From assembly GCA_032718475.1 (NCBI GenBank), contig JAUCBJ010004174.1, positions 1-64,000 of the forward strand: 64,000 bases of DNA. The letters are read 5' to 3'. Shown here piece by piece: positions 4,530 through 62,628 of this stretch. A program made the translations under genes and the position numbers. Under the pieces are notes generated by a model, which searched no databases, had not been told where the DNA came from, and saw only the letters and a program-made list of their open reading frames with translations. The number at the start of each line of letters is the position of its first letter. Within the stretch, counting starts at the first letter, position 1. The stretch comes from Nemertoderma westbladi. Lineage: Eukaryota > Animalia > Xenacoelomorpha.

Positions 4530-4937
4530 ACAGACAGGGAATTGTCCCTGACAGACTAGGGGTGGTCCCTGACAGACTAGGGGTTGTCCCTGGCAGAATA
4601 GGGGTGGTCCCAGACAGACTGGGGTGGTCCCAAACAGACAAGGGCCACTAGGGGTGGACCCAGACAGACTAGGGTTGGACACAGACAGACTAGGGTTGGA
4701 CACAGACAGACTAGGGGTGGTCCCAAACAGACTAGGGGTGGACACAGACAGACTAGGGGTGGACCCAGACAGACTGGGGTGGTCCCAAACAGACAAGGGC
4801 CACTAGGGGTGGACCCAGACAGAATAGAAGTGGTCCCAAACACACTAGGAGAGGACCAAGATAGAATATTGGTGGTGCCAAACAGACTACATGCATATGG
4901 TCCCAAAGATACTAGGGGTGGTCCCAGATAGACTAGG
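4530..4937. repeat. ~21-bp GC-rich minisatellite, left part (split by the LTR element)
   Basis: Monomer cagacagactaggggtggtcc and variants; the same family resumes at 20813. Confidence 0.95.
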
Positions 4938-5985
4938 TGTTCGCGCTTTTAGACCTTTTAACAGTTTAACCTGCTAATTTAAGTGTCTCCTGAATCGACA
5001 TTTGCCCGTACTAATTGACATCAGCTGAAGCCAGCCTAGCGCGGCGTATGACCCACGGGTGTGGGAGACTGGATTCAGTTCTAGAGCAGTTATTGCAGTA
5101 GGCTACTTTGTATTATTAGATTGATCACTACTATATAATCTCCGACAACTATATTTACTTTCGGGGAAATATTAACAGTTCCTTTGGGACGTGGCGCTTT
5201 AAGTATCAAACAGAGTTATGACTTACACTAATCACAACTAGTGGCAATAAGATATCGCAAATGGCGCATTCTTTAGGAATGCTTTATTAACCTTCACACT
5301 AATGCACACTGATTTGCCGACTGTCACTGATTTTGATCATATATAAGGAGGATTACAACTCACGTAGTTTGGGATTATGAAATAGCATTTATTTCACATA
5401 AAAACCACTATAAATTGAGCCACAATTGCTACTGATACACCCTTCTGCTTACCTCAGTAATTCAGAAAGTCAAGGGGGATTTTACGTTTATCCATCAGTA
5501 TTCTCCAAATATAACATCCATTAATATAAACAGCAATTAACAATAATATAAAACAGTATATTAGAAAACAGTGCGGTGAAATCAGTCAGTATGTATGTAA
5601 TGCAGTGAAATACGTTGGTATGTATGAGTTACGATGTTTCAATGTTAATAGATTTGCGTTCTTATGACTCTAAGCCTCTGATGTTAGGGCGAAAGTCTGA
5701 AAGTCAGAATGTACGAATGAATCCTGAATGAAATATGAATTCTCGGAAAACTGCCGCATTGCGTCATCTCCCATAGGCCGCTGTTAACAGAGAAAGGAAG
5801 ATTGTTCTGCAATTGGCTAAATCTATGTCAACAAAGGTCGATTCCTCACACAAAGGAACAGCTGGTAGATTTCGTCATTCCAACTCTGGGTTTTTGACAG
5901 ACACGTATTTGTACAATTCTAAGCCCTTTTAGAGTATTTAGCGCATTGCGCAAAATGACTTATTTTGACCGCAAAAGCTTTTACA
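4938..5985 (-). repeat. 3' LTR (1048 bp)
   Basis: Begins TGTAAAAGC on the minus strand after a purine-rich GGGAGCGG (PPT-like) and ends ...GAACA next to the TSD. 5356-5985 matches 20185-20812 with about 22 differences by manual count. Confidence 0.9.
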
Positions 5986-6028
5986 CCGCTCCCAGAAAAT
6001 GGGATTTAAGTCTATAATATATATAAAA

Positions 6029-9000
6029 TCACATCCTTCTTTCACGAACGGCGTATTGAAGTTTTTTTAAGACTGGTGAGAGTCTTTTTCTCTTTGGGGC
6101 GAGCCACTTTACTAGGAGGGCTATAACTCCTGGGGGAAGGGTGCAATACAATTGCATCGGAAGGGTTAGGATTGCGGTTGGTGTATCCGCTGGTCGAGGT
6201 ACCCGGTTGATTGATATCGATATTGGTGGATCAGGATTGGACATCCTTTAGGGCTCGTTTCAGGACGGCAGCTCGTACTGGCCCTTGATTGGTTGTCTGT
6301 ACGACAGCGGTGGGTTGACCATACGTAGTGAGGAATTTTCTTGGTTTAATCGTCTTTTCTAATTCGCGTTCCCTGGCTTTGTATTCATATGGTCGTCTAT
6401 GAACTTCTTGTAACTCGGGATGTGCGTTTATGAATAATTCACCATATTCAGGATCTTGGCGGATAAAGTTAATCAGGTTATAAGAATCCAAGCTATTGGG
6501 ATTGATATTTCTCAGATATTTCCGAACGTATTTGGTTGAAACACTCTCGCCTACACGTTTCATCAGTTCATAACTAGGAGTGCGAGATTTTTGTTCAACT
6601 GAGGAAAAGAGATATGGGTGAAACGCATAAACTCCTTCATATGCATATCCTGGATAATATCGGTGGCGTGATTCGCAATGGAGATCCGCACTAGCTTCCC
6701 AAGATCTGATTTAGCGTAATGCAACTATTTCGTCCACGCTTTCTAGGTCTCGGTTGAAAGGGCAATCGAAACTAGTGTGTCCTTTGAATTGGCAGTGATG
6801 ACATTGAGTCATAAATTGAGCACAAACAGCGAAAATATGCTGATCGTTGAGTCGACAAAAATCATAATAAATTTCCATAGGAGGTTGGTCTTTAAAGTAG
6901 GAGCAGCGTTTGTTGGAGTCTAAAGGGGTAAAGTGGTCACATGATGCACATAATCGACAATGTTTCCTAGAATTGTAATTGGCATGCCGATAAATCATAT
7001 GCCGTGAAACGTTGTGGACCTTGATACCATTCCAACACATAATCATTATCACTACACCGGGTGTTATGGGTTGAATTTCTTCAGATTGTAAGCAAATTGG
7101 TTCTTCTTCAACTTGCAGAGCTTCGACGGATGTAGCCATTTTCTCTAGGGAACCCACCGTTTGAACTTCCACAATAGAGTATCCTGTGGGAATTCTGGGT
7201 CTTTGCATGACGGATGAATGTAGATTCTGTACGCAAACGTCCTTGAAAATGGCAAATCCAGCGCTATCCAACTTCTCAGTGGCGGAATCTCTCAAGCTGA
7301 GTCTGGTCAATGCGCGGTCTTTAAACTGACTATCAACGTTACGGAATGGAGTCAGAAAGCGCCTAAAGCATTCGAATCGGATGAATTTATTGTGTTCATC
7401 TAGTTTAGCGAGTTTAGTTCCAAGCACTAAGGGGTGAGCGCGTATAGTTCAACTGTACACATCGGCTAGCAACCGGCAAGTGCGGCGTTCTCGAAGATGG
7501 TATATATAGCTAAGGAGGGACGGAGTGGCACACTCATAAAGCTATAAACAACTCCAGGTGCTATTAATGGTCCATCAAAATATAATCGCGAATAATGGTC
7601 GCCATATATTCGTTGATAACTGATGGGATCCCCAACTTTAAAATTCCATCTGTATTCCTGGAAGGCCAGATGTCCGATGGAGGTTCTTTGTACTTTGTTA
7701 ATTCCACTCGGTGTATTGGCATAAATGGTCCGGAAGGGTATGGGATATTTTCCATATTTCTAAAGTCGTTTTGGAGATCTCCATAAATGGCTGAACCGAT
7801 CTTAACTATTCTTTCGTCGAACAGCATTTCGAGGACTGGTTGGGGTAGCATAGATCCATCTATACCCATTGCTGGTTTACGTTCGGTGTTGGTTACATAA
7901 CGTTGCGCGAGTTCGAATTGTCCATGTATAAGTCTCTTTTGTATATCTGTAAGAGTTTCAAAAGAGTGGTCGATCGCGTCGGAACAGCCCAAGTAAAAAC
8001 ATGGGTAGAACCAGCTAAACCTCATATATGTATCATTCATGTAGTTCGTAGTTCTCCAACAGGAACACTACCTTCGTTATTGTAGGTAACAACTCCGTAC
8101 ATTTCGATAATGTTGCGAGTTTCATTCCACTCTTCTGTGGGCCTTTCTATGGTCATGCCCACCGGATGCCATAATGTCACGCAGTCACTGGCGTTGGGTA
8201 AATCGCAATATTTTAAATAATGCGTAGTATGTGTAGCTTCATCTCCATATATCTGTATTCTTTCTTCTTCAAACAATATATCTAGATTCCAATGGACTAG
8301 TCGAGTTTTAATAAATCCATCGAGATTATATGGAGGTATTACGTCATTTTCTATTCTTGAAACATTATAAGGTTTTCTAAATAAGTTTGCTTTAACTAAT
8401 TGATCTAAATGTTTTTGTAGTTGTTCAAGTTCAACAAGGTTGAGGGGATTTATCAATGGTAGAAACTTTAAACTATGTGTAGGATCTTCGGTTTTCACCA
8501 TATAATATTGAGTTAAATGGACATAGTAGGGGTGGTCTTTGATCCTGTAAAATGAGTTCTATAAAGGTCTAGCGCGTATGTTAACCTCGTGTACCATACG
8601 ATGGATAAGATCCGCTCGATTCTCTGGAGGTTCAACGAGTATACCGTCGACACGAGCAGCTTCGATTGGTGGATGTTGTAACATAGGAGCGTCAGCGATA
8701 AGATCTCGAGATTTCAAGTTGATATCAACCGGTTGAGGTTGTGCTGTCGCGAATAGTTTATCTCCGAAATGAAGAACCATCGAAGGATGAATGACGGTTT
8801 TGGAATAGAGATCAGTCATAAGTATTTGAGCATCAGGTTGGGCTAAAGCTGCTTCTTCTCTCTCGTCCATTTCGATATGTTTCTCCACGAGCTGATTCTC
8901 CTCCGCTTGTCTTTGAAAGCGTTCGTCTAAGAACTCTTGTAGCAAGTATGTACGTCCAAGTTCAATATCTTCCTCCAGATTCTTGATTTCGCGATCGAAC

Positions 9001-10230
9001 TGAGGTAAAGCTAATTCTTTTACCGCTTGGACTTATTGCTGCAATCTACGTTTGTCTAAACAATCGTAGGTTCCCTTTCCGATCTTTTGCCGAATCGCGT
9101 CCAGTGCGTTCCGTATAACACTTTCCTCCACCTCGGTGACAGGTTGTATCGAAGTCAAACCGGGATGATTATACGGGTTGAACGGAGATATTAGATGTCT
9201 GTGTCCCAATCCGGCTAGGTAGGATGGGCAAGTATCCAAAGAGCCCACAACCGGAGTGCTACCGACTAATTGTTCGGGTAACACCAGATCTTTGAACAAT
9301 GAGTACAACTCAGGAGGATCTGTCATACTGTTAGGGTCGAGAGTCTGCGGTCGCACCGGGGAATGAGGAGGTCTGACCGAGTATTCTGAAACTCTGATCA
9401 TAGGTTTACTTAAAGATTGTTTGAGCCGAGCGAGCGTAGGTAGTACGTCGAACAAGTTTCGCTCAAAACTCCCATAAGTACAGCGAGTAAAACTGTGTTT
9501 AGCACAACGTCTCCGCGGGTGTTTATGTCGTTCCGTTTGTTGATTGGGTCTAGGGCATTCATCGCAGCAATACCAAAGACGCACATCTTGTAAAGGAAAC
9601 GCTGGCGATCTTTCTCCAGTTTTACAATATTCCTCCATCTGGTATCATCTATCTGGTACAACAGGTAATGGTCGATTGGTGGTAAGATACATCATAGTAA
9701 AATACAGTCGTTTAAGTTCCATCATGGGATTAGGATGTATACCTTGCGGATATCGAGTTTCTAGATTTTGTTGACTAGCTACATTGAGATAAGTTTCTCT
9801 CAGGAACTCTAAATATTCGTAAAGGTCACTACGCTTGTCCGGTTCTTCAACATCTTCTCTTTCGAGTCGGTTTCGAATAGAATTTTCATGTTCAATTCTC
9901 AGTTTGTTGTTCTGACTCCGCTGGGCATGATATTTAAATAAAATCATCTCCCTTTCGGTATCCACATCGTCAGTATTGTGTAAATCGATAGGATGACCAG
10001 TAGTTAAGAAGTCCATATACGTACCATTACAATGCGTATAGCGAGCGGTGAATTTTCTATAGTCCAAGTCACGCTGGAGCTGTTCCTCGGACATTGGCGG
10101 TTCGATATAACGTCCATCATCTTCCATCGTATGTTGACACGCATCGCCGCTTATCAAACTATCAACAAACGCTTGTAGAGGTAGAGTATATCGCTCCCTG
10201 ATACCAAGATCATCTTCTATAAACTAAGTC
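6029..10230 (-). pseudogene. Extra (ORF3-position) retrotransposon ORF broken into 8 pieces: Cys/His region, coiled coil, DEDDy-like 3'-5' exonuclease fold, zinc-knuckle cluster
   Basis: Co-oriented abutting ORF fragments between integrase and the 3' LTR. Motifs: VVTYNNEG (ExoI-like), LPQPVLEMLFDERIVKIGSAIYGDL (ExoII-like), PLRPSLAIYTIFE (ExoIII-like, ~7490-7530, frame not in the ORF track) and CHHCQFKGHTSFDC (CX2CX4HX4C). Confidence 0.7.
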
Positions 10231-12029
10231 ATAATAGATATATGAGTATATTATTGAGATTATAATAAATAAGGCTAGCGAGCGTCGCCGCCTTTACTCC
10301 CCCTCTGCCCCCAGACAGCCCTGAGATCCTCAGCGATGATGTACTGTTGTTTCTGTGCCCCTTGCCAACGTAGTAGCCACACAACGACAACAATAATCAG
10401 CATGAGTCACTCTACTGTCCGTCCCAAGGGCTCGAATATACTGGAGGTACTTGTTACAGATGTAGGATAACTTTCACAATTGTGGCTCGCTACTGTAAAC
10501 ACACTTTAGTAGTAACATTCACCTATAAATACACAAATTCCACATTCCTGCCATAATTTGTAAAAATTAGGGCCATTTGTCCGTTAGTCAGATGCCTTCC
10601 AGAATGCCACGTTATTATTATGTATCCTTGGATACTATCAAGATGCTATGTATTATGCATGCTATTCAATGGGGTAAGCTTTCTATTGTTCTTTTAACTC
10701 ACTTCTAATTCTAGCGTGGTTGTTACTATGGTGACATTATGCAAAGCTAGCGGTAGAATTAGGGTATTTATCATGCATGCAGATCTGGGATGCTATTTAG
10801 TAGCGACTCTTGGGATATTAATATTCCCTTTATATATGATTTTTATTAATTTTGTCGACTATTGTCTGTACACTGGAGATTCTCTCACACTGCTATACTT
10901 AAAAGGGTGGATCTCCGCTCCCATGATCTATTAATTGACAGAATTTTCGGAATATTAATAAATTGTATAAAATGACAATTTATTTAATTCATGAGAGGAT
11001 ATGAATTTAAAATTTATTCCCGTGAATTTTATTATTTTACATTAAAATAGACACAGTTTTATTCCAGAACATGTCTGGGGCCGCTAATCCTTGATTTCAG
11101 AAATTTTGTCTTTTAAGTATATAAGTACCTATATATAGGTAAGTGCTGCGATATCTTAATCAACTCAAAATTTAGAGGATCTAAGGTTTAACATAATTTT
11201 ATTTTCAACATTTTGTTATACCAAATGTTGTGAATATTTAACAAATAGTTAATATTAGGATGGGCACCGATTTATTCCAGAACATGTCTGGGGACAGGGA
11301 CTGATTCTAGAATTTTGTCTTTCAAGTATATCGGTGGGTGCCACTATCTTAAACGACTAGAATTTCAGATGGTCAAAGGGTTTAACAGATTTATTGGTCA
11401 AAGAATTTAACAGATTTACTTTGACAGCGCTACTGCTAAATTGACATCTTTCTACTATATGTATTATTTAAAATATGGTACGAGAGCAATATTGCAAGAA
11501 GCAATGTGAGTGAGAAGAGGCAAGTCGTTTCAAAGGTCTACCCAGAGCTTGGTTTAGCCGAGACACGAGGATCTGAACTTTGCATTCCTAATACTCTACT
11601 TTACCAATAATACCTAAGTATAGTAGGAGCGGTATAGATTGTACTTTAATAAGTACCGACATTTCATCTTACTGTAGTCACGCATTTATAATAGAATATG
11701 GACAGTAAGGAAAGAGAAAATGAAATTATTCCTCGCCGTTAACTAAATATATTATACTAAGTAATTAAGTAATAATATACGAAATATATTGCACTAATCT
11801 ACTGAATAATTGTTTAAAATATTATTCTACTAAATAAAATTAAATAAAAGGATCATAATAATATAAATTACATAATAATGCGTACATAAATATAAAATAA
11901 AACAAATAAAATAATAGAGTCACACACCCACTCCAATCGCTGTTACATTGTGGAGTCCCTAGATGTTTGTTAGATTAGGGAGGTGGTCGTAGGAAGAGTC
12001 TCTTATTTTCCGTAGTAGCCAGACAACTC

Positions 12030-15000
12030 TCAGTCTCTTTCCAATAAACATAAACGACCAACCGGGCGATTAAGTTGTTGAGTTTCAAAAACGATTCCAG
12101 GTTTCTTGTAGTTACGTCGCATGACTACGAGTTCCACAGATCTTACTAAACCATCATCGGATATATGAGTCTCGATGATACGAACTGTCTGCCACCTCTT
12201 ACGGGAAAGATCTGATTCCACAATGAGGACCATGTCTCCAGCGCTGACATTTTCTTGCTGCACAAACCACTTTTTTCGAAGTTGTAGCGTAGGAAGATAA
12301 TATTTTTCGAAATGGTCAGCAAAACGACTGTATAATAACTGCATAAGTTGCCAAGTTTGTCGGCAGTATTCGTCTCCATCCGTTATTTCCGACTGCGGGA
12401 GCATGGCTACAGGTTTTTTAGTAGGAAATGCACGGGTGTTAGCGCTTCTAGGGAGTCTGGACTCGATGAGACTGGCATAAGCGGTCTCTTGTTGAGATAG
12501 GCGGCTATTTCCTCCATTAATGTCCGCAAAAGTTTGTCGGTGAGATACGTGCGGCACGGCACTACAAAGTTAAATGTGGTCTTCACGCTACATATGAGTC
12601 TCTCCCAACTTCCTCCCCACCAAGGGGCGTCGGCGGCGTTGAAGGTCCAGCTAGATGCTGTTACTCTCAGCTTTAATCTCGTTGTTGGTGCCAATGAAAT
12701 TAGTACCTTTGTCGGATCTCATAGTGTTGCTAGTCCCAAAACGAGAGATTTGTTGGCGTAAACTCAGTATGAAGCTGTTGGTAGATAGATCATTAACCAT
12801 ATCAAGATGGATCGCTCTACAAGTCATACAAACAAAGATGACGCCCCATCGCTTGACTATAGTCCTAGCGCGATACACTTCAATAGGGCCAAATAAATCC
12901 ACACCAGTATTGGTAAAGGGTGGTTCATAACAGCTTACTCTTTCCCTAGGTAATTCTGCCTCTCGCTGTGTTAAAGGCCTACTAAATGCTTTCCTACATG
13001 GTATACAGTTCCTAAGAACTTGGTTTAGAGCTCTACGGGGCTTATGGAAATAATAGCGAGTTCGAATTTCGCTAAGAACTCGTTCTCTACCAGTGTGGTA
13101 AAGCTTACTGTGAACATCTACAATCATCTTGATTTGTATTTCAAGATTTCTAATTAGTATGGGAAACTTAGTGCCAAAGGACAATGGAGCATTGGTTTAT
13201 CTCCCTCCGACACATATTAGCCCATCTATCATTGTGCTAGAAAAAGAATCTCTTAAGCGCATCTGTGGATTTCTCAACAACAGGAAATACCTTTCGGAAT
13301 TCTCGTAACATTGCAGGAGTCTCAGTATCTGCTTATTGGTATCATCATGTTCTTGGTAACTGATCTTCTCAGTTAGAAACTTATTAGGTAGCCGATAAGT
13401 GGAAAGATCTTTGGTAGCATGGACCCTTTCAGCTACTTCCGAAGTGGCGTCATTAGCGATCGTCGTCCTAGAATAGTGATGATGGAACTTTGAATGAAAA
13501 ACTAATGAAACTTTAATTCCATCGGGAGTTTCAACCCTAAGGTAGGCTACTATACCTATTCCGATATCGCTGGCATCTCCAAAAACATGGAGTTGATAGG
13601 AATATGTGGGGAGAACGTGGCCGAAATATGAGCGGGAAATCTTAAAGTTCTCGATGGCTGGTAAAGAATCCCCCCACTTCATCCACTTATTTAGCAGTTC
13701 TCCCTGGAGTGGATCATCCCAAGAGTGGTTTTCGAGCCACATTTGTTGCACCAGACTCCAAGCAACTAGGATTACAGGACTAATGAATCCTAATGGGTCG
13801 AATTAAGTGCTCAGAATACTCAGGCAAATCCGTTTAGTTCGAACGGGGTTTTCACGTTGTTTCAGTTGGAAAAATAAAATGTCTCTCTCTGTGTCCCATT
13901 TCAGTCCAAGGGTTTTAGTTTTGGGGAAATTGTCCTTAATGAGGTCCAGATCTTTAACACCTCGGTCTTCCACTGGGATCGATTCCAGGAACTCATGGGA
14001 GTTACTAGTGAATTTGGTTAGGCGAAATCCACCTCGTTGTAAGCACTCTACCGTTCCCTTGGCAACATCAATTGCTTCTTCCACCAATGGGAGGGACTTT
14101 AGGTTGTCATCCATGTAAATATCTCGTTTGATGTTGTCGATAACTGCTTTAGAGAAGGCGTCTCTATTATCGTCGGCAGTGGTGCGTACTACCGAACAAG
14201 CGTTTGAGGGGCTAGATATGATCCCGAAAGCCTGGATGGTCATCCAGTACTCCACCAGTTCTCGGTTGAGGTTTCCTTCAGGCCACCACAGAAATCGTAG
14301 GCTATCTCGATCCCTAGGTAATGCTTTAACTTGTAGAAACATGCCTTCAATGTCGGAGGCAAAGGCGATAGAATATTGCAGGAGTCATAATAAGATTCCC
14401 AATAAAGTTTGGATTAAGTTAGGTCCCAGCAACAGTTCAGAATTTAGGGATTGTCCCATATAAAGAGCGGAACCGTCGAATACTACCCGGACTTCGTTTG
14501 GTTCACCGGATTTAGGAACGTAATGATGGGTCAAGTAATACGTTCTTTCTGTTATGGGTGTTTTAGCCGGAACTCGCTCCGCGTATCCTTTATCTATAAA
14601 TTTCTTTAATTGCGTCTTATACATCTCTTTGGCTTGATCGTTAGATGATAAGCGCCGATGCAGTTGTTCGATTCTTTTGACGGCTAAAGGTCAGTTATTA
14701 ATAAAGCTGGGTTCTCTCCGCCTAAAAGGCAGACCAATCTCCTTTATATAACGAGTAGTCGTTACCTGGATTTGTTTAGCCCTCTCTTCCTCGACTGATA
14801 ACGCTTTATCGTAGGAATTAGGCTCAACAGCTTCCTGGTTAAAGAATCGCACTGCGTGTTCATCACGTAACTTATTGTTATATCGCTCTACTACCTCATT
14901 AAGTTCGTCATCGCCATAAGTCGATAGTTCGTTATTTTGACATATAAGATTACACAAATTTAATTGATTGGTCCAAGTTTGATTTTCTGTGAGGAGTTCG

Positions 15001-15600
15001 ATGGTGTTATCCTCATCGTATAGGGTCTGGATATCATCGTTGTCTGAGGAGCATGAAGTTCCCTCAGCTATGATGTCCTCGTCTTTCACGGTTTCCACAC
15101 ACTCTCTTACCTGATGGACTTGCTCATTTTCTAACCTTTCTTTCAAAGTCCTGTGAAATACCAATCTACCCTAGTTCTTCCCGTATAAGTTTGCAATGGT
15201 AGCGGTCGAGCAGGCCGTTTCTCAATGGTTTCTAGTGCTTCGTGCGCATTCTGACCGAACAGTATTTGTACCCCTGGGTAATCTGAAATAAATCTGGGGT
15301 CGTTGTATTGCTGGGCAAAGTTGTCCTCGTCCCAGTTATAAGGCTCTACTTGACTAGCAGCAAAGTTCTTTATTGCCACCATTTTAACTGACCTTACAAT
15401 GATCCTATGTAGAAATCCGTGGATACAGTAGATTTCCATACCTGCATAATCCCGGAAAGATTCAGTTTGGTTTGGAATCTTTGTTGACCAGCGAATATAT
15501 CTTCGGCCAGATCTTTATCGATGAAGGTGCCTGACTACCTGAATCAAGGAGGGCATTGACAATAATATTATAATATTGTCCATGTACTCTAAACTGCACC
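12030..15600 (-). pseudogene. pol: BEL/Pao pol (aspartic protease, RT, RNase H, integrase, C-terminal DUF5641-like region) with stops and frameshifts
   Basis: VNALLDSGSQ (~15531-15560); VRVVFDGSA, GQSLNSELLLGPNL, LRFLWW, AFG, IYMDD; LHVFGDAS; H-x4-H...CIPC, GVDLFGP, RSDKGTNF, PWWGGSWERLI; YLPTLQLRKKW...RPVGRLCLL. Confidence 0.95.
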
Positions 15601-15845
15601 ACTGGGAACTCTCTGATGCCGACAGATGGTTACGAAACCTTCTATGAGGGCTGTTGATCCGGAAGGGGTAGTTGGGATTCCTCTCCATCAGTCGCCGCCT
15701 CATAAGTAAGGGCTCGATATACGATATTGTATTGATCATATAACAGGATTCCTTTTCATCAGAAAACTCATCCGTATAGAATCCTTCCATCTCCGAACTC
15801 TGGTCCGTGTTGTTCACATCACTGAACTGTACATGCAGCTCTGGT

Positions 15846-18800
15846 TCACTTACCATCGAACTTGGTGTGCAGTAGGATATGATGTTTCGCTCCACACTTA
15901 GCACACCTCACGTCTGAGTAACAGGTTTTTCTTTCATGTCCTCTCCTGAGGCAATTGTTACATAACCTTTTATCCCAAGTTACACTATGTCTATCCTTTA
16001 ATTCTTTCCTTAAGAATTCCTCACACCCACTCAAGCGATGGGGCCCTTCGCACAATACACACTTAGGTTTGATGTTACTTACCTTAACTTGCATGGTGTT
16101 TTGTACGCTAACTCTTTCTTCGGGCTTCCTACCAGGAATTCTCTTGGGAGACGTAGGAGGAGTTCTGAGTTGTTCTCCCTTGCTACTAGTTCGAAACTTG
16201 GGTTTACTTATGTCCTTACCTTTACTCGTATAATAAGTTCTTTCGGTGTCTTTGCCACTATCTTCGTCATAAGACGTTTGACTCTCATAATCTGTATAAC
16301 ACACTGGTGTTATCTTTCTCCTAGTAACAGGTTTTTCGCTTACCTTGGTTTCCGGAGTCTTATCTTTAGACTGTTTTATTAGCTGTAATCTTACCTCTCC
16401 ATTTAAGAATGACATAAGGTCCGCCATGGTTGGATCTCTCTGATGTTGGTCCATCAAGTATAGAACCTTTTTGTCCCAACGAGTACCTACTCCACCCTTT
16501 GGCAAAGTTGACGCTACGGCTCCTACAACCATAGAACTTTGGTATTCATGAGACTTACCCAACCAGTCTAGCTGTCTACAGATCTCCTGAATCTCATCGG
16601 AAAACTCTATAATCCCGTTGCTAGGAAACTTCCTGGGCGCTACTAATTTCGCATACAGATATCTAGCTATGTTAGTCCTATTACCATACCTGATGTTAAG
16701 GGTATCCCAGACTTGTCTTAATCCGCCAGGATGTCCAATAAACTTTAACGCCATTAACTTGGGAGGACCCTCCAAGCACTCGATGAGGAATCGTAGTTTC
16801 TCTCCGTTGGATAGTACAAAGTTTTGTATGTTATCTTTGTAATATTCATTAAAAGGTAACCATTTCATCTCATCTTCATTAAACTTGACGACCTCACCCA
16901 CCTTTACAGCTTGACGAGCTTCCGTCCTAGCCATCTGACGCGTGAAACTCTCTTGAGCCATCGTACTATTTAATATCGAATTATCGGTATATAAATTTCT
17001 CGGATTATTATCAGATCGGTATGGGATATCATTATCAACAGCTTTATTAATATTATTAATAGGGTTTACTATAGGAGTTTCTACCTCACTAGCAGTATAG
17101 ATGCGTGTAGGCTCCACACCTTGCGCATGAGTTACTTCAGGCCTAAAGGGCTGACACACTGTTACAGGGGGTGGTGGTATACCCATTTGTATATTGACTA
17201 ATTTATCTCGTTCAAGACTGATGTGTTGCTGCACTTCTTGCAACTCTATTTTACTGTCTCGTACTGTTCCCTTTAATAATTGAACAGTTCCTTCTAAATC
17301 TCGGACTTGTTCAGTAGATTTAGCCTTTGTTTGGGCTAACTGTCCGAGTAATTCTTTTAACTCCTGCCGCCCTTCCTCCATCCACTCACCGCGGGTGCGG
17401 GAGCCGCCAACATAGTAGCTGGATGGCACATCGGGGCTACAGGGGATATTCCCTTGAGGAACAGATTTTTCTCAGTATTAATACCAGTCTGAGACTCGGT
17501 AATTTGTCTACTGGCCAAGGGAAGTTTGGTACTGTGTAAAGGGAATTCAGAGTTGTGTTCAGGCAGCAAAAGTGTCTCCATTAAAGGAGTAGTTTTGATA
17601 GCAGGCCTAATTATTTCTGGCTCATCTACTATAGTAGGGAGTCTATCTGCTCATACTACTTGAGTTATTTACTCTCTATCTCTTAAGTTTACATTAGCTA
17701 ATTCCCTTCTCACTGGGGGGGGGGGGGGGTAAGTTAGGTAACTTATGTCCTTTGGGCGCTTTTCTACGTCCGTTAGAATGGGATTTGTTACTTCTACACT
17801 CGGAATCAGTGGTAGTACCTTCGTCTGAGGAGGTAAATCCATGTCTTCGAGAGGTAGATCGAATTAGGAGTTGCATCTGAGTCGCCCCCCTTTGTTTACT
17901 TAAGAAATATTGTCTCGCCTAAATGCTCTCTAACTCTAATTGTGCCTTTGCTTCATCTGCTCTCCTTTCAGCTTCTACTGTGGCATCTTTAAGTTCTACT
18001 TCTGCCTCTGTCGCTGCAGCTTTTAGTTCTGCTTCAGCGGCTGCAGTTCTTTTCCTATCTTCTATTAATCCTTTCTTTATTTGTTCCTCTTTGTCCAACA
18101 CGATAATAATGTCTTCATCTATCTTAGCTTGCTCCGCCACTATAATTTGGGCATCCAATGAGTCTAAAATGAAGTTGGCTGCCTCACTGTTGGGGTGAAG
18201 TCCGGCTAGACGTCTCCTCAGCTCTTTATCACCTATAGCATCCTTCCTTTGAGGTTTTTCGGATACCGCCTCGCTTTCCCCATGGGAGAAGATTGCATCT
18301 GTTGATTCTCCGTAGGCTAGTTGTTCTGCTAACTGAGCCTTCCATTGGGTTGTACCCAGGACCTTAACATTCATTCGCTGGAACCATGTCTTTACTGCCA
18401 CCTGCAGTGATGTATCTTGACTTCTCTTCGAGGCCTCTTCAAACGCTGACAGGATTAATCTGATCATCAATATTCGTTGTCTCACTTGGTATAGCAGTTC
18501 TCCCTGCTCTGGAGGTTCCAGTTGTCCTCGGAATAGCTGTGTTTCCATTCATCCCAGGGTGTTGAAGAATCCTTGGACATATCCGGCTGCTGATCTCTTC
18601 CATACAGCGGGAACTCTGGTATCTCTAACTACGCCCATCTGATGCAGGTCTTCCCAGGCAGCTTCAGATAAGTTAAAAGGGAGTCCGGGTCCGGGAAAGT
18701 TCCATTGAGTTTCCACAATAGACTTTAATTCCTCGAGCGGGTATCCGGCGTAACTATCTCTGGTTGACTGCTTATTTCTCGTCCAGTCCACTTGATGTTC

Positions 18801-19193
18801 TTCTATGGCTAGAAGAACTCGAGTGAGCACTGCCCCAGGAAGAATCAGGAGTGGGTCAGGGTAAACCACTTCTTCCATCTTTGATCCGATCTCGGGCATT
18901 AACACTTCTGTGCTGGAACCAGAGTTACTGAGTGGTGGAGAAATAACCTCTCGGTCAGAGCACTGCTGCTGTTCTACAGCCGTCGCTTGGTCTCGGTTAA
19001 CTTGAGCCCTAGTGCCTATAATAGACCTATGGTGCTTCACTAACCTAGGGTCCGATACAACTACTGTAGGGATGGCCTTTCTTACAGTAGGAGGGGACTT
19101 AGACCTCGATTCGGGCCTTTCTACACTTTGATCTGGGTCACAGCTCGTCTGTTCCAAGAGACTATCGGACATTGTTTGTTTTGGGTCAGACAT
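15846..19193 (-). pseudogene. gag: BEL/Pao gag with long N-terminal extension, interrupted
   Basis: CVLCEGPHRLSGC, CNNCLRRGHERKTC, CAKCGAKHHILLH, and a DUF1759-like core (WLPFNEYY...EKLRFLIECLEG...LNIRYG). ORFs starting at 19193, 18548 and 17876 are one frame broken by single stops. Confidence 0.9.
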
Positions 19194-20184
19194 AATTTAT
19201 TTACAGTTGAATGCCTATCACGATAATAACAGTTAAAGTAAAGTCTAGGGCAAATCCGTATCAACTGTCAGTCTCGTAGTTACCAAATATTGTTACTCAA
19301 TGTAACGTGGGTATATATCGAGTGTTAGAATACCGGTATACACCTATAGTATATATAACAGTATTACTACAGACTAGGATCAATCACTGAATACCGGTAT
19401 ATAAGTTTAGCCTAAGTTATATAAATATATAATAAGCTTACTGTAAACACCGATATTATCAATAATTAAATAATAACTGATTATCCGATTTTAGGAATTA
19501 TTTCCCTTTTCTCTATTACTGATATTAAGTAATAGGTTCAACTGATATTAAGACCTAATTGATGTATAACAGGCCTACTAATTTATAAATCTGATTGAGT
19601 TAAATTTATAAATATATATACCCGTAATGGGTTTTGTCAATTATTGAAATAAATGTTATTATTTCTGAGTAAGAAGTCACTACACAGAGGTTGGACGCTC
19701 TCAGTGGAGTGCTACTTATTAGACACTAAATACTGATAGTTCTACTTAACTAAGTTACTTATCACTACAAATTACTTACGTATAACAGGTTGAGATTACA
19801 CAATCTCTAAGTAAACAATAAACAAAGTTACACATACAATTTTTAGGGTAATTTTACAAGAATTTCACGAACCAGACTAACAAGAATTTAGAATTTCTGG
19901 TTCTTACAGACTGACATGGAATTTACGGAAATTTGAAACCAATAAAGTAGTATTCAATTACGTCGTGTTGTCCAGATAAGGAAATGCCACCGTCTGACGG
20001 CTTATAGTCTACACTATAAACCAATGTACCCAGAGTGTCCTATACCTAGAGATTAATTATCGAAGCCTAAAGCTAACGGACCTATTAACCACGTTACAAC
20101 ACAAAAATGCTGTGTACACACTAAATTAACTTTGAGGAAAGCGCTGTACTATAAACCCTAGATTAGATACTAGCACTTATATTG

Positions 20185-20812
20185 CAACTCACGTACGTTG
20201 GGATTATGAAATAGCATTTATTTCACACAAAAACCACTATAAATTGAGCCACAATTGCTACTGATACACCCTTCTGCTTACCTCAGTAATTAAGAAAGTG
20301 AAGGGGGATTTTACGATTATCCATCAGTATTCTCCAAATATAACATCCATTAATATAAACAGCAATTAACAATAATATAAAACAGTATATTAGAAAACAG
20401 TGCGGTGAAATCAGTCAGTATGTATGTAATGCAGTGAAATACGTTGGTATGTATGAGTTACGATGTTTCGATGTTAATAGACTTGCGTTCTTATGACTCT
20501 AAGCCTCCGATGTTAGGGCGAAAGTCTGAAAGTCAGAATGTCCGAATGAATCCTGAATGAAGTATGAATTCTCGGAAAACTGCCGCATTGCGTCATCTCC
20601 CGTAGGCCGCTGTCAACAGAGAAAGGGAGATCGCTCTGAATGGCTAAATCTATGTCAACAAAGGCCGATTCCTCACACAAAGGAACAGCTGGTAGATTTC
20701 GTCATTCCAACTCTGGGTTTTTGACAGACACGTAGTTGTACAATTCTAAGCCCTGTTAGAGTATTTAGCGCATTGCGCAAAATGACTTATTTTGTCCGCA
20801 AAAGCTTTTACA
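20185..20812 (-). repeat. 5' LTR, partial (628 bp; lacks the counterpart of 4938-5355)
   Basis: About 96% identical to 5356-5985; homology stops abruptly at 20185. Confidence 0.9.
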
Positions 20813-23330
20813 CTAGGGGTGGGCCCAGACAGACTAGGGGTGGTCCAAACATGCCAGGTGTGGTCCCAGACTGACTAGGGGTGGACACAGACAGACTAGG
20901 GGTGGACCCAGAGAGACTGAGGTGGTCCCAAACAGACAAGGTCCACCAGGGGTGGACCCAGACAGAATATGAGTGGTCCCAAACAGACTAGGAGTGGACC
21001 CAGATAGAATATTGGTGGTGCCAAACAGAACAAAGCATATGGTCCCAAAGATACTAGGGGTGGTTCCAGACAGACTAGAGGTGGGCCCAAACAGACTAGG
21101 GGTGGTCCAAACATGCCAGGGGTGGTCCAAACATGCCAGGGGTGGTCGCAGACTGACTAGGGGTGGACACAGACAGACTAGGGTTGGACACAGACAGACT
21201 AGGGGTGGACCCAGACAGACTGCGGTGGTCCCAAACAGACAACGGCCACTACGGGTGGACCCAGACAGAATAAGAGTGGTCCCAAACAGACTAGGTGTGG
21301 ACCCAGATAGAATATTGGTGGTGCCAAACAGATTACATGCATATGGTCCCAGAGATACTAGAAGTGGTCCCAGGCAGACTAGGGGTGGTTACATACAGAC
21401 AGGACTCGTCACAGACAGACAAGGGGTGATCACAGACAGTCTAGGGGTGGTCCAAACATGCCAGGGGTGGTCCCAGACTGACTAGGGGTGGTCCAAACAG
21501 ACTAGGGTTGACCTCTGACAGACTAGGGGTGGTCCAAACAGACTAGGGTTGGTCTCTGGCAGACTAGGGGTGGTTACATACAGACTAGGGTTGGTCTCTG
21601 ACAGACTAGGGGTGGTTACATACAGACTAGGGTAGGTCACGGACAGACAAGGGGTGATAACAGATATACTAGAGGTGGTCCCTGGCAGAATAGGGGTGGT
21701 CCCTGACAGACTAGGGGAGGGCCCAAACAGACTAGGGTTGGTCTCTGAAAGACCAGGGGTGGTTACATACATACTATAGGGTTCGTCATGGACAGACAAG
21801 GGGTGATCACAGACAGAATAGGGGTGGTTACATACAGACTATAGGGTTAGTCATGGACAGACAAGGGGTGATCACAGACAGACTAGGGGTGGTTACATAC
21901 AGACTATAGGGTTCGTCATGGACAGACAAGGGGTGATCACAGACAGACTAGGGGTGGTTACATACAGACTATAGGGTTCGTCATGGACAGACAAGGGGTG
22001 ATCACAGACAGACTAGGGGTGGTTACATACAGACTATAGGGTTCGTCATGGACAGACAAGGGGTGATCACAGACAGACTAGGGGTGGTTACATACAGACT
22101 ATAGGGTTCGTCATGGACAGACAAGGGGTGATCACAGACAGACTAGGGGTGGTTACATGCAGACTATAGGGTTCGTCATGTACAGACAAGGGGTGATCAC
22201 AGACAGACTAGGGGTGGTTACATACAGACTATAGGGTTCGTCATGGACAGACAAGGGGTGATCACAGACAGACTAGGGGTGGTTACATACAGACTATAGG
22301 GTTCGTCATGGACAGACAAGGGGTGATCACAGACAGACTAGGGGTGGTTACATACAGACTATAGGGTTAGTCATGGACAGACAAGGGATGATCACAGACA
22401 GACTAGGGGTGGTTACATACAGACTATAGGGTTCGTCATGGACAGACAAGGGGTGATCACAGACAGACTAGGGGTGGTTACATACAGACTATAGGGTTCG
22501 TCATGGACAGACAAGGGGTGATCACAGACAGACTAGGGGTGGTTACATACAGACTATAGGGTTCGTCATGGACAGACAAGGGGTGATCACAGACAGACTA
22601 GGGTAGGTCACGGACAGACAAGGGGTGATCACAGACAGACTAGGGTAGGTCACGGACAGACAAGGGGTGATCACAGACAGACTAGGGTAGGTCACGGACA
22701 GACAAGGGGTGATCATAGACAGACTAGGGTAGGTCACGGACAGACAAGGGGTGATCACAGACAGACAAGGGGTGATCACAGACAGACTAGGGTAGGTCAC
22801 GGACAGACAAGGGGTGATCACAGACAGACAAGGGGTGATCACAGACAGACTAGGGTAGGTCACGGACAGACAAGGGGTGATCACAGACAGACAAGGGGTG
22901 ATCACAGACAGACTAGGGTAGGTCACGGACAGACAAGGGATGATCAGACAGACTAGGGTGGTCACGGACAGACAAGGGGTGATCACAGACAGACTAGGGT
23001 AGGTCACGGACAGACAAGGGGTGGTCACAGACAGTCTAGGGTAGGTCACGGACAAACAAGGGGTGATCACAGACAGACTAGGGTAGGTCACGGACAGACA
23101 AGGGATGATCAGACAGACTAGGGTGGTCACGGACAGACAAGGGGTGATCACAGACAGACTAGGGTAGGTCACGGACAGACAAGGGGTGATCACAGACAGT
23201 CTAGGGTAGGTCACGGACAAACAAGGGGTGATCACAGACAGACTAGGGTAGGTCACGGACAGACAAGGGGTGATCGCAGATATACTAGAGGTGGTCGCAG
23301 ACAAACTTGCAGTGGTCCCATAGATAGACT
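20813..23330. repeat. ~21-bp GC-rich minisatellite, right part, with 65-bp and 42-bp higher-order sub-arrays
   Basis: Mixed monomers to ~21770, a 65-bp unit (about 12 copies) to ~22590, then a 42-bp dimer to ~23280. Confidence 0.95.
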
Positions 23331-27254: not shown

Positions 27255-27444
27255 CAACTGTATATCCAGACATACACACCAATACCCCCATACGTTATGT
27301 GAACACATCTTTATATAATATTTATTGGGGTTTTTTCGTCAATCTAATTAATGTATTAAAGGTTTATTGCATGTGTCCTATTACACGTAAAAACCTAGGA
27401 AGTAAATGGTTTAGTGTAGCAAATAAATTATTTGTTCACCTATC

Positions 27445-30400
27445 ACTGAACTGCCTCTACAACGTTCGCTCCACAGTAACTAACCTTAGACAGCGAACCC
27501 GAACTGCCTCTACAACGTTCGCTCCACAGTAACTAACCTTAGACAGCGAACCCGAACTGCCTCTACAACGTTCGGTCCACAGTAACTAACCTTAGACAGC
27601 GAACCCGAACTGCCTCTACAACGTTCGGTCCACAGTAACTAACCTTAGACAGCGAACCCGAACTGCCTCTACAACGTTCGCTCCACAGTAACTAACCTTA
27701 GACAGCGAACCCGAACTGCCTCTACAACGTTCGCTCCACAGTAACTAACCTTAGACAGCGAACCCGAACTGCCTGTACAACGTTCGCTCCACAGTAACTA
27801 ACCTTAGACAGCGAGCCCGAACTGCCTCCACAACGTTCGCTCCACAGTAACTAACCTTAGACAGCGAACCCGATGGTTTACTGAACTGCCTCTACAACGT
27901 TCGCTCCACAGTAACTAACCTTAGACAGCGAACCCGAACTGCCTCTACAACGTTCGCTCCACAGTAACTAACCTTAGACAGCGAACCCGAACTGCCTCTA
28001 CAACGTTCGCTCCACAGTAACTAACCTTAGACAGCGAACCCGAACTGCCTCTACAACCGCTCCACAGTAACTAACCTTAGATAGCGAACCCGAACTGCCT
28101 CTACAACGTTCGCTCCACAGTAACTAACCTTAGACAGCGACCCCGATGGTTTACTGAACTGCCTCTACAGCGTTCGCTCCACAGTAACTAACCTTAGACA
28201 GCGAACCCGAACTGCCTCCACAACGTTCGCTCCATAGTAACTAACCTTAGACAGCGAACCCGTACTGCCTCTACAACGTTCGTTCCACAGTAACTAACCT
28301 TAGACAGCGAACCCGAACTGCCTCTACAACGTTCGCTCCACAGTAACTAACCTTAGACAGCGAACCCGAACTGCCTCTACAACGTTCGCTCCACAGTAAC
28401 TAACCTTAGACAGCGAACCCGAACTGCCTCTACAACGTTCGCTCCACAGTAACTAACCTTAGATAGCGAACCCGAACTGCCTCTACAACGTTCGCTCCAC
28501 AGTAACTAACCTTAGGCGGCGAACCCGAACTGCCTCTACAACGTTCGCTCCACAGTAACTAACCTTAGACAGCGAACCCGTACTGCCTCTACAACGTTCG
28601 TTCCACAGTAACTAACCTTAGATAGCGAACCCGAACTGCCTCTACAACGTTCGCTCCACAGTAACTAACCTTAGGCGGCGAACCCGAACTGCCTCTACAA
28701 CGTTCGTTCCACAGTAACTAACCTTAGACAGCGAACCCGAACTGCCTCCACAACGTTCGCTCCATAGTAACTAACCTTAGACAGCGAACCCGAACTGCCT
28801 CTACAACGTTCGTTCCACAGTAACTAACCTTAGACAGCGAACCCGAACTGCCTCTACAACGTTCGTTCCACAGTAACTAACCTTAGACAGCGAACCCGTA
28901 CTGCCTCTACAACGTTCGTTCCACAGTAACTAACCTTAGACAGCGAACCCGAACTGCCTCTACAACGTTCGCTCCACAGTAACTAACCTTAGGCGGCGAA
29001 CCCGAACTGCCTCTACAACGTTCGCTCCACAGTAACTAACCTTAGACAGCGAACCCGAACTGCCTCTACAACGTTCGCTCCACAGTAACTAACCTTAGAC
29101 AGCGAACCCGAACTGCCTCCACAACGTTCGCTCCATAGTAACTAACCTTAGACAGCGAACCCGAACAGCCTCTACAACGTTTGCTCCACTGTAACTAACC
29201 TTAGACAGCGAACCCGAACAGCCTCTACAACGTTTGCTCCACTGTAACTAACCTTAGACAGCGAACCCGAACTGCCTCTACAACGTTCGTTCCACAGTAA
29301 CTAACCTTAGACAGCGAACCCGTACTGCCTCTACAACGTTCGTTCCACTGTAACTAACCTTAGACAGCGAACCCGAACTGCCTCCACAACGTTCGTTCCA
29401 CAGTAACTAACCTTAGACAGCGAACCCGTACTGCCTCTACAACGTTCGTTCCACTGTAACTAACCTTAGACAGCGAACCCGAACTGCCTCCACAACGTTC
29501 GCTCCACAGTAACTAACCTTAGACAGCGAACCCGAACTGCCTCTACAACGTTCGCTCCACAGTAACTAACCTTATACAGCGAACCCGAACTGCCTCTACA
29601 ACGTTCGTTCCACAGTAACTAACCTTAGACAGCGAACCCGTACTGCCTCTACAACGTTCGTTCCACTGTAACTAACCTTAGACAGCGAACCCGTACTGCC
29701 TCTACAACGTTCGTTCCACTGTAACTAACCTTAGACAGCGAACCCGAACTGCCTCTACAACGTTCGTTCCACAGTAACTAACCTTAGACAGCGAACCCGT
29801 ACTGCCTCTACAACGTTCGTTCCACTGTAACTAACCTTAGACAGCGAACCCGTACTGCCTCTACAACGTTCGTTCCACTGTAACTAACCTTAGACAGCGA
29901 ACCCGAACTGCCTCTACAACGTTCGTTCCACAGTAACTAACCTTAGACAGCGAACCCGTACTGCCTCTACAACGTTCGTTCCACTGTAACTAACCTTAGA
30001 CAGCGAACCCGTTCTGCCTCTACAACGTTCGCTCCTCAGTAACTAACCTTAGACAGCGAACCCGTACTGCCTCTACAACGTTCGTTCCACTGTAACTAAC
30101 CTTAGACAGCGAACCCGAACTGCCTCTACAACGTTCGCTCCACAGTAACTAACCTTAGACAGCGAACCCGTACTGCCTCTACAACGTTCGTTCCACAGTA
30201 ACTAACCTTAGACAGCGAACCCGTACTGCCTCTACAACGTTCGTTCCACTGTAACTAACCTTAGACAGCGAACCCGAACTGCCTCCACAACGTTCGCTCC
30301 ACAGTAACTAACCTTAGACAGCGAACCCGAACTGCCTCTACAACGTTCGCTCCACAGTAACTAACCTTATACAGCGAACCCGAACTGCCTCTACAACGTT

Positions 30401-33400
30401 CGTTCCACAGTAACTAACCTTAGACAGCGAACCCGAACAGCCTCTACAACGTTTGCTCCACTGTAACTAACCTTAGACAGCGAACCCGAACAGCCTCTAC
30501 AACGTTTGCTCCACTGTAACTAACCTTAGACAGCGAACCCGAACTGCCTCTACAACGTTTGCTCCACAGTAACTAACCTTAGACAGCGAACCCGAACTGC
30601 CTCTACAACGTTCGCTCCACAGTAACTAACCTTAGACAGCGAACCCGAACTGCCTCTACAACGTTCGCTCCACAGTAACTAACCTTAGACAGCGAACCCG
30701 AACTGCCTCTACAACGTTCGCTCCACAGTAACTAACCTTAGACAGCGAACCCGAACAGCCTCTACAACGTTTGCTCCACTGTAACTAACCTTAGACAGCG
30801 AACCCGAACAGCCTCTACAACGTTTGCTCCACTGTAACTAACCTTAGACAGCGAACCCGAACTGCCTCTACAACGTTTGCTCCACAGTAACTAACCTTAG
30901 ACAGCGAACCCGAACTGCCTCTACAACGTTCGTTCCACAGTAACTAACCTTAGACAGCGAACCCGAACAGCCTCTACAACGTTTGCTCCACTGTAACTAA
31001 CCTTAGACAGCGAACCCGAACAGCCTCTACAACGTTTGCTCCACTGTAACTAACCTTAGACAGCGAACCCGAACTGCCTCTACAACGTTTGCTCCACAGT
31101 AACTAACCTTAGACAGCGAACCCGAACTGCCTCTACAACGTTCGCTCCACAGTAACTAACCTTAGACAGCGAACCCGAACTGCCTCTACAACGTTCGCTC
31201 CACAGTAACTAACCTTATACAGCGAACCCGAACTGCCTCTACAACGTTCGTTCCACAGTAACTAACCTTAGACAGCGAACCCGAACTGCCTCTACAACGT
31301 TCGCTCCACAGTAACTAACCTTATACAGCGAACCCGAACTGCCTCTACAACGTTCGTTCCACAGTAACTAACCTTAGACAGCGAACCCGTACTGCCTCTA
31401 CAACGTTCGTTCCACTGTAACTAACCTTAGACAGCGAACCCGTACTGCCTCTACAACGTTCGTTCCACTGTAACTAACCTTAGACAGCGAACCCGTACTG
31501 CCTCTACAACGTTCGTTCCACAGTAACTAACCTTAGACAGCGAACCCGTACTGCCTCTACAACGTTCGTTCCACTGTAACTAACCTTAGACAGCGAACCC
31601 GAACTGCCTCCACAACGTTCGCTCCACAGTAACTAACCTTAGACAGCGAACCCGAACTGCCTCTACAACGTTCGCTCCACAGTAACTAACCTTATACAGC
31701 GAACCCGAACTGCCTCTACAACGTTCGTTCCACAGTAACTAACCTTAGACAGCGAACCCGAACAGCCTCTACAACGTTTGCTCCACTGTAACTAACCTTA
31801 GACAGCGAACCCGAACAGCCTCTACAACGTTTGCTCCACTGTAACTAACCTTAGACAGCGAACCCGAACTGCCTCTACAACGTTTGCTCCACAGTAACTA
31901 ACCTTAGACAGCGAACCCGAACTGCCTCTACAACGTTCGCTCCACAGTAACTAACCTTAGACAGCGAACCCGAACTGCCTCTACAACGTTCGCTCCACAG
32001 TAACTAACCTTAGACAGCGAACCCGAACTGCCTCTACAACGTTCGCTCCACAGTAACTAACCTTAGACAGCGAACCCGAACTGCCTCTACAACGTTCGCT
32101 CCACAGTAACTAACCTTAGACAGCGAACCCGATGGTTTACTGAACTGCCTCTACAACGTTCGTTCCACAGTAACTAACCTTAGACAGCGAACCCGAACTG
32201 CCTCTACAACGTTCGCTCCACAGTAACTAACCTTAGACAGCGAACCCGATGGTTTACTGAACTGCCTCTACAACGTTCGTTCCACAGTAACTAACCTTAG
32301 ACAGCGAACCCGAACTGCCTCTACAACGTTCGCTCAACAGTAACTAACCTTAGACAGCGAACCCGAACTGCCTCTACAACGTTCGCTCCACGGTAACTAA
32401 CCTTAGACAGCGAACCAGAACTGCCTCTACAACGTTCGTTCCACAGTAACTAACCTTAGACAGCGAACCCGAACTGCCTCTACAACGTTCGCTCCTCAGT
32501 AACTAACCTTAGACAGCGAACCCGATGGTTTACTGAACTGCCTCTACAACGTTCGCTCTACAGTAACTAACCTTAGACAGCGAACCCGAACTGCCTCTAC
32601 AACGTTCGCTCCACAGTAACTAACCTTAGACAGCGAACCCGAACTGCCTGTACAACGTTCGCTCCACAGTAACTAACCTTAGACAGCGAACCCGAACTGC
32701 CTGTACAACGTTCGCTCCACAGTAACTAACCTTAGACAGCGAACCAGAACTGCCTCTACAACGTTCGTTCCACAGTAACTAACCTTAGACAGCGAACCCG
32801 AACTGCCTCTACAACGTTCGCTCCACAGTAACTAACCTTAGACAGCGAACCCGAACTGCCTCTACAACGTTCGCTCCACAGTAACTAACCTTAGACAGTG
32901 AACCCGAACTGCCTCTACAACGTTCGTTCCACAGTAACTAACCTTAGACAGCGAACCAGAACTGCCTCTACAACGTTCGCTCCATAGTAACTAACCTTAG
33001 ACAGCGAACCCGTTCTGCCTCTACAACGTTCGCTCCTCAGTAACTAACCTTAGACAGCGAACCCGAACTGCCTCTACAACGTTCGCTCCACAGTAACTAA
33101 CCTTAGACAGCGAACCCGAACTGCCTCTACAACGTTCGCTCCATAGTAACTAACCTTAGACAGCGAACCCGAACTGCCTCTACAACGTTCGCTCCACAGT
33201 AACTAACCTTAGACAGCGAACCCGAACTGCCTCTACAACGTTCGCTCCACAGTAACTAACCTTAGACAGCGAACCCGAACTGCCTCTACAACGTTCGCTC
33301 CACAGTAACTAACCTTAGACAGTGAACCCGAACTGCCTCTACAACGTTCGCTCCACAGTAACTAACCTTAGACAGCGAACCCGAACTGCCTCTACAACGT

Positions 33401-33929: not shown

Positions 33930-34045
33930 TTCCGCGCTCCCGGTGGGGGACGTAGAACGGCCCCGGCTGGTGGCCCTTCCCGTTTTATTTCCTGCCGTTC
34001 GTGGGGCGACAGACTCGAGTCCGAGTCGATAGCCACCCGACTAGC
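33905..34045 (-). CDS. Exon of the low-complexity protein gene
   Basis: Acceptor ccctctacctag at 34046; ASRVAIDSDSS...KKPSGSLSK; donor AAG|gttagt; 141 nt, phase 0/0. Confidence 0.8.
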
Positions 34046-62556: not shown

Positions 62557-62628
62557 TACGGTGGCTGAAAGCGGCCAAAATAATTCACTACTTTTTTAAT
62601 TTTTAATTTGATCAACATTTTTTTCTTG

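Follow-up and report, generated by a model that had tools for sequence, protein, structure and literature searches.

Third open reading frames (ORF3s) of the DEDDy exonuclease type have been described in the long terminal repeat (LTR) elements Juno and Vesta of bdelloid rotifers and also in Athena/Terminon; their activity is unproven, and they showed no departure from neutrality (PMC5408684). They are cited in reviews (PMC6431247, PMC5718144, PMC6338049). Dada transposases carry a DEDDy domain (PMC3706591) and KolobokD a DEDDh nuclease (PMC9587614), and in Trypanosoma brucei RNase D (TbRND) a DEDD domain goes with several CCHC knuckles, which hold RNA and pass it to the active site (PMC9181182). 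For Belpaoviridae, the ICTV profile gives gag, pol and env only, and a length of 4.2-10 kb (PMC8742986). Here we describe a BEL/Pao element of Nemertoderma westbladi with a decayed ORF3 in the position of env, the middle of which is likely to be a diverged DEDDy homologue. The window is the stretch of 64,000 nucleotides (nt) at positions 1 to 64,000 of contig JAUCBJ010004174.1 (assembly GCA_032718475.1), and all coordinates are positions in it, in forward-strand numbering.

Like the ORFs of Juno, Vesta and Athena, the ORF3 of N. westbladi is a separate ORF after pol in the env position, has no transmembrane segment and has DEDDy-like motifs with a D/E swap. Strong profile homology is seen in the rotifer ORFs and not in ORF3; the two were compared by description. 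The host is here a BEL/Pao element, the ORF is longer than its nuclease-like part by ~700 residues ahead and by zinc knuckles behind, and this part was under purifying selection, in contrast to the rotifer ORFs, in which no departure from neutrality was seen. Env-bearing BEL/Pao elements have the same gag-pol backbone and a gene in the third position, but ORF3 is not a membrane glycoprotein. At 15.9 kb the element exceeds the range of the Belpaoviridae profile; lengths in an automated BEL/Pao survey had a median of 7.4 kb and a maximum of 22.8 kb (PMC3118150, file 9). Dada and KolobokD are likewise mobile elements with a DEDD 3'-5' exonuclease but are DNA transposons, and in Dada the domain is inserted within the transposase.

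TbRND differs from ORF3 in being a host mitochondrial enzyme of ~350 residues, with no homology shown. In PDB entries 7c42 and 7c45, which we take to be TbRND, the nuclease was matched at residues 16-200 of 351. The TbRND knuckles are N-terminal according to PMC9181182.

Our reading, to which we give a probability of about 0.6, is that ORF3 is the third gene of a BEL/Pao family and would have specified a likely cytoplasmic DEDDy exonuclease with RNA-holding zinc knuckles, a helper of the element. The likelihoods worded below for other explanations overlap partly with it and are not intended to add up to one.

The extra open reading frame and its sister copies

The element runs from 20812 to 4938 on the minus strand and is flanked by a 5-bp target duplication. 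Between its LTRs, the Pfam matches above cut-off on the minus strand were DUF1759, Peptidase_A17, Integrase_H2C2 and DUF5641, the usual BEL/Pao set. By its LTR structure, its gag and pol domains and the order of reverse transcriptase, RNase H and integrase in pol (YMDD at 14117, PF05380 region at 13802-13500, integrase at 13196-12030), it is a BEL/Pao element.

A preliminary description, made from the sequence alone, had placed an extra gene between the integrase stop at 12030 and the LTR start at 5985. Both limits were correct, and the eight co-oriented ORF pieces reported there are present (9645-10223, 9033-9644, 8559-9032, 8037-8558, 7564-8067, 7466-7759, 6711-7448 and 6231-6710), together with a ninth (6042-6230) that is co-oriented and in the same frame. 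The claim of one decayed gene of ~1400 codons also held: the read-through, with X at the breaks, is a single path of 1390 codons interrupted by 8 stops and 3 frame breaks. Two corrections are needed. The ORF ends at 6042 and not at 6029, 57 bases before the LTR and with the purine tract intact, and it does not adjoin pol but is preceded by a non-coding spacer of 1,806 bases.

Over 1399 codons the main minus frame carries 17 stops, whereas each of the other five carries 66-94; in the spacer, the main frame has 14-21 stops per 600 bases. In-frame ATGs occur at 10232, where a stop follows, and at 10127. The path runs in frame A from 10223 to 7987, in B to ~7734, in C to 7470 and again in A to 6042, and it is fixed by length differences near 7985-7986, 7727-7734 and 7469 relative to sister contigs from four public DNA runs.

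These runs represent three samples from three studies under one species label, and the best-matching run is possibly the source sample. They yielded 28,679, 42,736, 15,288 and 582 contig records at 80-100% likeness; the family is thus very abundant, with tens of thousands of contigs in three runs. Sister contigs covered all 30 bins of the element, and ORF3 was covered in all four runs. In 7380-8180, the three stops and the frame breaks are not common to most sister contigs, and unbroken copies probably exist, the family being abundant. A contig of run X5 skips 7033-9857 (2,825 bases of ORF3) and is an internally deleted derivative without the nuclease-like part.

The selection test was done on the 800 bases 7380-8180 with the 40 best-supported of 149 differences at 20% share. 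On the A/B/C/A path, 24 of them were synonymous, 13 were not, and 3 fell on stops unique to this copy. The expected number of synonymous differences was 11.0 ± 2.7, and 24 was reached in none of 20000 simulations. Third positions held 22 of the 40 differences (p 0.003), and any single frame in place of the composite path gave 12-14 synonymous differences. This excess on the composite path shows that 7380-8180 coded for protein under purifying selection. Our results therefore support a real and selected accessory ORF other than env, and the comparison of selection among copies that the preliminary description had proposed gave a purifying result for this region. As had been claimed, ORF3 has no transmembrane segment (highest 19-residue hydropathy 1.17), and an env glycoprotein was rejected on that ground.

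Resemblance of the middle of ORF3 to DEDDy exonucleases

The preliminary description had named three motifs resembling ExoI, ExoII and ExoIII of DEDDy nucleases, and all three lie where it put them and in the right order (Table 1). We compared the joined path with profiles built from 58 bacterial PF01612 loci: 17 WRN/EXD-like (the RNase D sequence L101 had been removed beforehand from 18 low-score loci), 10 NrnC-like, 10 RNase D, 20 PolA, and all 58. Library scans took separate pieces or the main frame only.

The ExoII motif was the clearest. In HMMER searches of the read-through it was the best site with three of the five profiles, and the RNase D profile gave the best score, 5.6 bits, which none of 1000 shuffles reached. 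As an ungapped block it was the top site of ORF3, with a score that 2000 shuffles attained 1 and 3 times. With hhalign the ExoII piece had E 0.002-0.02 (0-2 of 100 shuffles) at probabilities of 2-13%, and the only ORF3 windows with E < 0.1 against DEDDy profiles, 2 of 20, were both on this site. By eye, its 25 positions share 12 gapless identities with Dada-2_LB and 8 with human WRN (PMC3706591, Fig. S1).

A five-block colinear test was completed with three profiles. It was matched by 9 of 400 shuffles for the WRN/EXD-like profile and by 2 of 400 for RNase D, and it put ExoI and ExoII on the motifs that had been picked out by reading. In its internal spacing ExoIII agrees with the WRN, mut-7 and RNase D rows of a published alignment (PMC3706591, Fig. 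S1). At ExoI, this copy lacks D-x-E, and sister contigs match the acidic pattern in all four runs, at 63-100% of depth. That is the outcome a DEDDy hypothesis predicted, and it adds weight to it. ORF3 resembles the WRN-exonuclease/mut-7/EXD and RNase D group (PF01612) in its gapless ExoII match, its ExoIII spacing and its motif order, and differs in scoring below every family threshold, in spacings ~40 and 24 residues longer and in a last acidic residue that is E. From these likenesses we consider it likely that the middle of ORF3 is homologous to DEDDy domains but diverged and enlarged by two insertions. What by eye looked like another DEDD half, a degenerate one at residues ~1005-1075, was dropped, as no profile supported it (27-53 of 60 shuffles).

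Downstream of this part we found zinc knuckles that the preliminary description had missed. One is clear, a complete CX2CX4HX4C at 6803-6762, and two are probable from their sequence, at 6866-6822 and from 6959-6933 onward. The middle one (6822-6866) is degenerate here, because three adjacent codons differ from nearly all sister contigs. PF13917 matched the knuckle with E 0.053, below cut-off, and the Atlas neighbours of this part are zf-CCHC clusters at 0.85, which is a lead only.

Several results weigh against the interpretation of ORF3 as an exonuclease gene of this family. The WRN/EXD-like and mixed HMMER profiles were not significant (49 and 44 of 1000 shuffles), two of the five HMMER profiles gave no domain on the read-through, the HH probabilities never exceeded 13%, and the NrnC chain test was negative (277 of 400 shuffles). 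The ExoI block, third of 1360 and eighth of 1362, and the ExoIII block, fifth and 22nd of 1371, did not rise above shuffles, nor did the hhalign pieces for these motifs (16-96 of 100). The motifs are 100 and 90 residues apart, compared with 57-62 and 65-68 for the references (after exclusion of one row that was mis-parsed), and the fourth acidic residue, in ExoIII, is E instead of D. Pfam, NCBIfam and PHROGs gave no PF01612 or nuclease-family match. The whole ORF3 had no homologue in a collection of 5.8 billion clusters (766-2440 aa), and the first 1200 main-frame codons, a query that carries the ExoII and ExoIII parts out of frame, had none among 1.84 billion representatives. There was no match in PDB sequences, nor in the Atlas for the frame-B piece. 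The selection result covers 800 of the 4,180 bases of ORF3, and no sister contig of the four runs spans both ORF3 and pol of another copy.

Other searches were also blank. PF01612 did not match the separate pieces with E limits of 1 and 10, the domain being split over three frames, and a global hhalign of ORF3 gave nothing. The frame-B piece had no homologue in the 5.8-billion-cluster collection (294-2000 aa and 91-293 aa), and exact look-up, viral contigs and metagenome contigs returned no ORF3 homologue. The DEDDy ORFs of Juno, Vesta and Athena were not among the sequences returned by the homologue searches. The N-terminal 745 residues had no notable match in Pfam, NCBIfam or PHROGs and no homologue; most of ORF3, ~700 residues ahead of the domain and 200 behind it, is without a relative in these collections. 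Structure models of two unbroken pieces, made without an alignment (predicted TM-scores 0.34 and 0.19), were uninformative, and Foldseek on them gave a best E of 4.2. These blanks do not show absence, because the collections are thin for animal repeats. Of the earlier wording, "DEDDy-like" is upheld by ExoII, by ExoI in the sister contigs and by the ExoIII spacing, and has no library profile, homologue or fold behind it; the proposed library-profile and structure checks brought no support, and no donor came to light for "captured", since no homologue was found.

The blank library, homologue and fold searches would be expected if ORF3 were real and selected but its exonuclease likeness a matter of chance, the middle part having another fold. 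Only a single 25-residue motif stands clearly above background, and as many families are recognisable by a reader, p ~0.001 is not decisive. We nevertheless hold chance to be doubtful, given three motifs in the right order, ExoII and ExoIII internal spacings that agree exactly with published alignments and the independent ExoI result from the sister contigs.

If the homology is accepted, the domain could still be catalytically dead. ORF3 would then act by binding RNA, as a scaffold or decoy in the manner of EXD1 or Maelstrom, which were raised as inactive derivatives in the rotifer study (PMC5408684). The E for the last D, the long insertions between motifs and the weak ExoI and ExoIII scores would fit this, and the knuckles allow RNA binding without catalysis. 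Yet ExoI shows its acidic pattern in the sister contigs, ExoII keeps its D and ExoIII its Y and an acidic residue, and the rotifer ORF3s, judged possibly active, also swap D and E (DEED; PMC5408684). A dead scaffold therefore appears unlikely to us. Granting homology, the odds are about even that catalysis survives in working copies, the fourth acidic residue being E.

It is far less probable that ORF3 belongs to an unrelated nested element, such as a DEDD DNA transposon of the Dada or KolobokD kind. The closest by-eye match of ExoII is to the Dada domain, Dada transposases carry both DEDDy and CCHC motifs (PMC3706591), and the linkage of ORF3 to pol is known from this copy only. But no terminal inverted repeats or flanking duplication were found around ORF3, a check proposed in the preliminary description; the ORF is co-oriented with the element and reaches almost to its purine tract; Pfam gave no transposase signal; and none of the best 15 of 258 contig joints skips ORF3.

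Structure of the element and its surroundings

The features of the element are given in Table 1.

Table 1. Features of the BEL/Pao element in the N. westbladi window
Feature	Position	Strand	Remarks
Target-site duplication CCTAG, upstream copy	20813..20817	minus	In phase with flanking minisatellite
5' LTR, part common to 3' LTR, starts TG	20181..20812	minus	Match to 5352-5986
AT-rich leader or unmatched distal part of 5' LTR	19197..20180	minus	Candidate primer-binding site inside
gag region	15846..19196	minus	PF03564 DUF1759 E 6.6e-10; broken N-terminal pieces and 541-aa piece
pol, broken	12030..15907	minus	PF05380 E 9.8e-24, PF17921 E 2e-8, PF18701 E 1.4e-19
Non-coding spacer between pol and ORF3	10224..12029	minus	1,806 bases, 34% GC, short internal direct repeats
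ORF3, extra decayed ORF, ~1,390 codons	6042..10223	minus	Nine pieces, single frame path
ORF3 N-terminal 745 residues	7989..10223	minus	No recognisable domain ahead of nuclease-like part
ExoI-like motif, degenerate in this copy	8070..8093	minus	Chain test in 2 of 3 completed profiles
ExoII-like motif with aspartate	7774..7848	minus	Top site of ORF3
ExoIII-like motif, aromatic-x3-PL-x6-Y-x3-E	7490..7540	minus	47 of 20000 shuffles, with the pattern widened after the site was seen (F allowed for W, E for D)
Zinc-knuckle cluster	6762..6959	minus	One complete, two probable knuckles
Weak polypurine tract, short, purine-rich, before 3' LTR	5986..5999	minus	From the sequence
3' LTR, bounded by target duplication, TG...CA	4938..5985	minus	5351-4938 without 5' counterpart
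Target-site duplication CCTAG, downstream copy	4933..4937	minus	Same five bases as upstream copy

The repeat pair 5352-5986 / 20181-20813 matches over 633 bases with 96.2% identity in 635 columns (21 substitutions, 12 transitions and 9 transversions, and 2 gap columns). The first bases of the element are TG, at 20812, and its last are CA, at 4938, with CCTAG flanking both sides. Its far end is not the edge of the 633-base match. CCTAG occurs 12 times in 409 bases of the flanks, and the five-base match alone would be weak; the target duplication was accepted because of the minisatellite phase and the CA end. The element was inserted in a minisatellite with a CACCCCTAGTCTGTCTGGG-like unit (4530-4937 and 20813-23330), which shifts to a different unit further right.

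Beyond the shared 633 bases the ends differ fully, with 414 bases (4938-5351) at the 3' end and ~890 (19291-20180) at the 5' end. Both stretches end in CA, the 5' one followed by TGG, and both are covered by sister contigs. No local similarity was found between the leader 19197-20180 and 4940-5351 (score 28, shuffles 27 ± 4). The mismatch could be accounted for by sequence lost or replaced in the 5' LTR, or by recombination between two subfamilies. A candidate primer-binding site, CA...TGG, lies near 19290-19275, and no TGG directly follows the 633-base match. In BEL/Pao elements the site after the 5' LTR is one for tRNA-Arg or tRNA-Gly; the candidate here would presumably be tRNA-Arg-like. 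Self-priming had no support at two candidate sites, where the longest LTR complement was 7-9 bases.

The gag N-terminal pieces are broken (18549-19196, 17919-18548 and 17357-17650), and the 541-aa piece has a capsid-type domain and Cys/His knuckles. Ahead of the capsid, 17357-19196 holds ~600 broken codons, acidic and proline-rich, with no Pfam match. No protease was identified in the broken pol stretch 15907-15143. This copy is dead, because gag and pol carry stops and frameshifts. The spacer has direct repeats at 11033-11331 and 11370-11418 (90 bases at 76%, 24 bases at 92%), possibly regulatory.

Elsewhere in the window, 27340-34000 is a long array of 53-base tandem repeats, the copies 95-98% alike, and 62626-62963 is an array of a nearly palindromic 22-base unit. 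By eye, a 155-aa piece at 40697-41164 (minus strand) presumably resembles the endonuclease part at the end of a non-LTR retrotransposon. A 456-aa open frame at 43663-45033 (minus strand), acidic and then with 13-residue Ser/Arg/Asp/Lys repeats, is possibly a large host exon. A near-identical pair (49872-50510 and 51486-51971), ~1.6 kb apart, is a local duplication or a repeat.

Possible role of ORF3 and its meaning for BEL/Pao elements

A fusion of ORF3 to pol is unlikely because of the 1.8-kb non-coding spacer, so ORF3 may have been made from an RNA of its own, spliced or internally started. The knuckles might tether the protein to the RNA-protein particle of the element, where it could trim the 3' ends of element RNA or of copying intermediates; by analogy with trypanosome RNase D, they may also feed RNA to the active site. 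In this scheme ORF3 would serve the cycle of the element itself, and not as an envelope.

An active nuclease could instead be directed against the small-RNA defence of the host, trimming or destroying piRNAs or their precursors and so lifting silencing of the family. The WRN-type relatives mut-7 and Nibbler shape small RNAs, and copies of the family are plentiful. Copy number can be high for many reasons, though, and the extra ORFs of rotifers did not track with it (PMC5408684); this role seems improbable to us. The same holds for the fullest version of it, in which a DEDE exonuclease of the WRN/mut-7 type with three knuckles and 700 further residues, acquired independently of the rotifer ORF3s, would disarm small-RNA silencing and so raise copy number: on the present sequences we rate it a long shot.

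DEDD cargo is known from other retrotransposon groups, and a BEL/Pao host for it was not found described. The word "exonuclease" is absent from the main text of a survey of 7,861 BEL/Pao elements (PMC3118150), and no gene of this kind was met in a BEL/Pao element in the literature searched. That search did not extend to Repbase, GyDB, subscription journals, supplements on bioRxiv, those of PMC5408684 or the PMC3118150 sequence file, any of which may hold such a family.

Our preferred reading remains that ORF3 is a likely DEDDy-type helper of its element. Unlike the rotifer ORFs, ORF3 shows purifying selection, in its nuclease-like part, and so was of some use to the element. Should the domain call be right, BEL/Pao would be a second major LTR lineage with a DEDD nuclease in the env slot. 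What was a rotifer curiosity would then become a repeated solution, and would raise the question of which step of the LTR cycle or of silencing needs 3' trimming.

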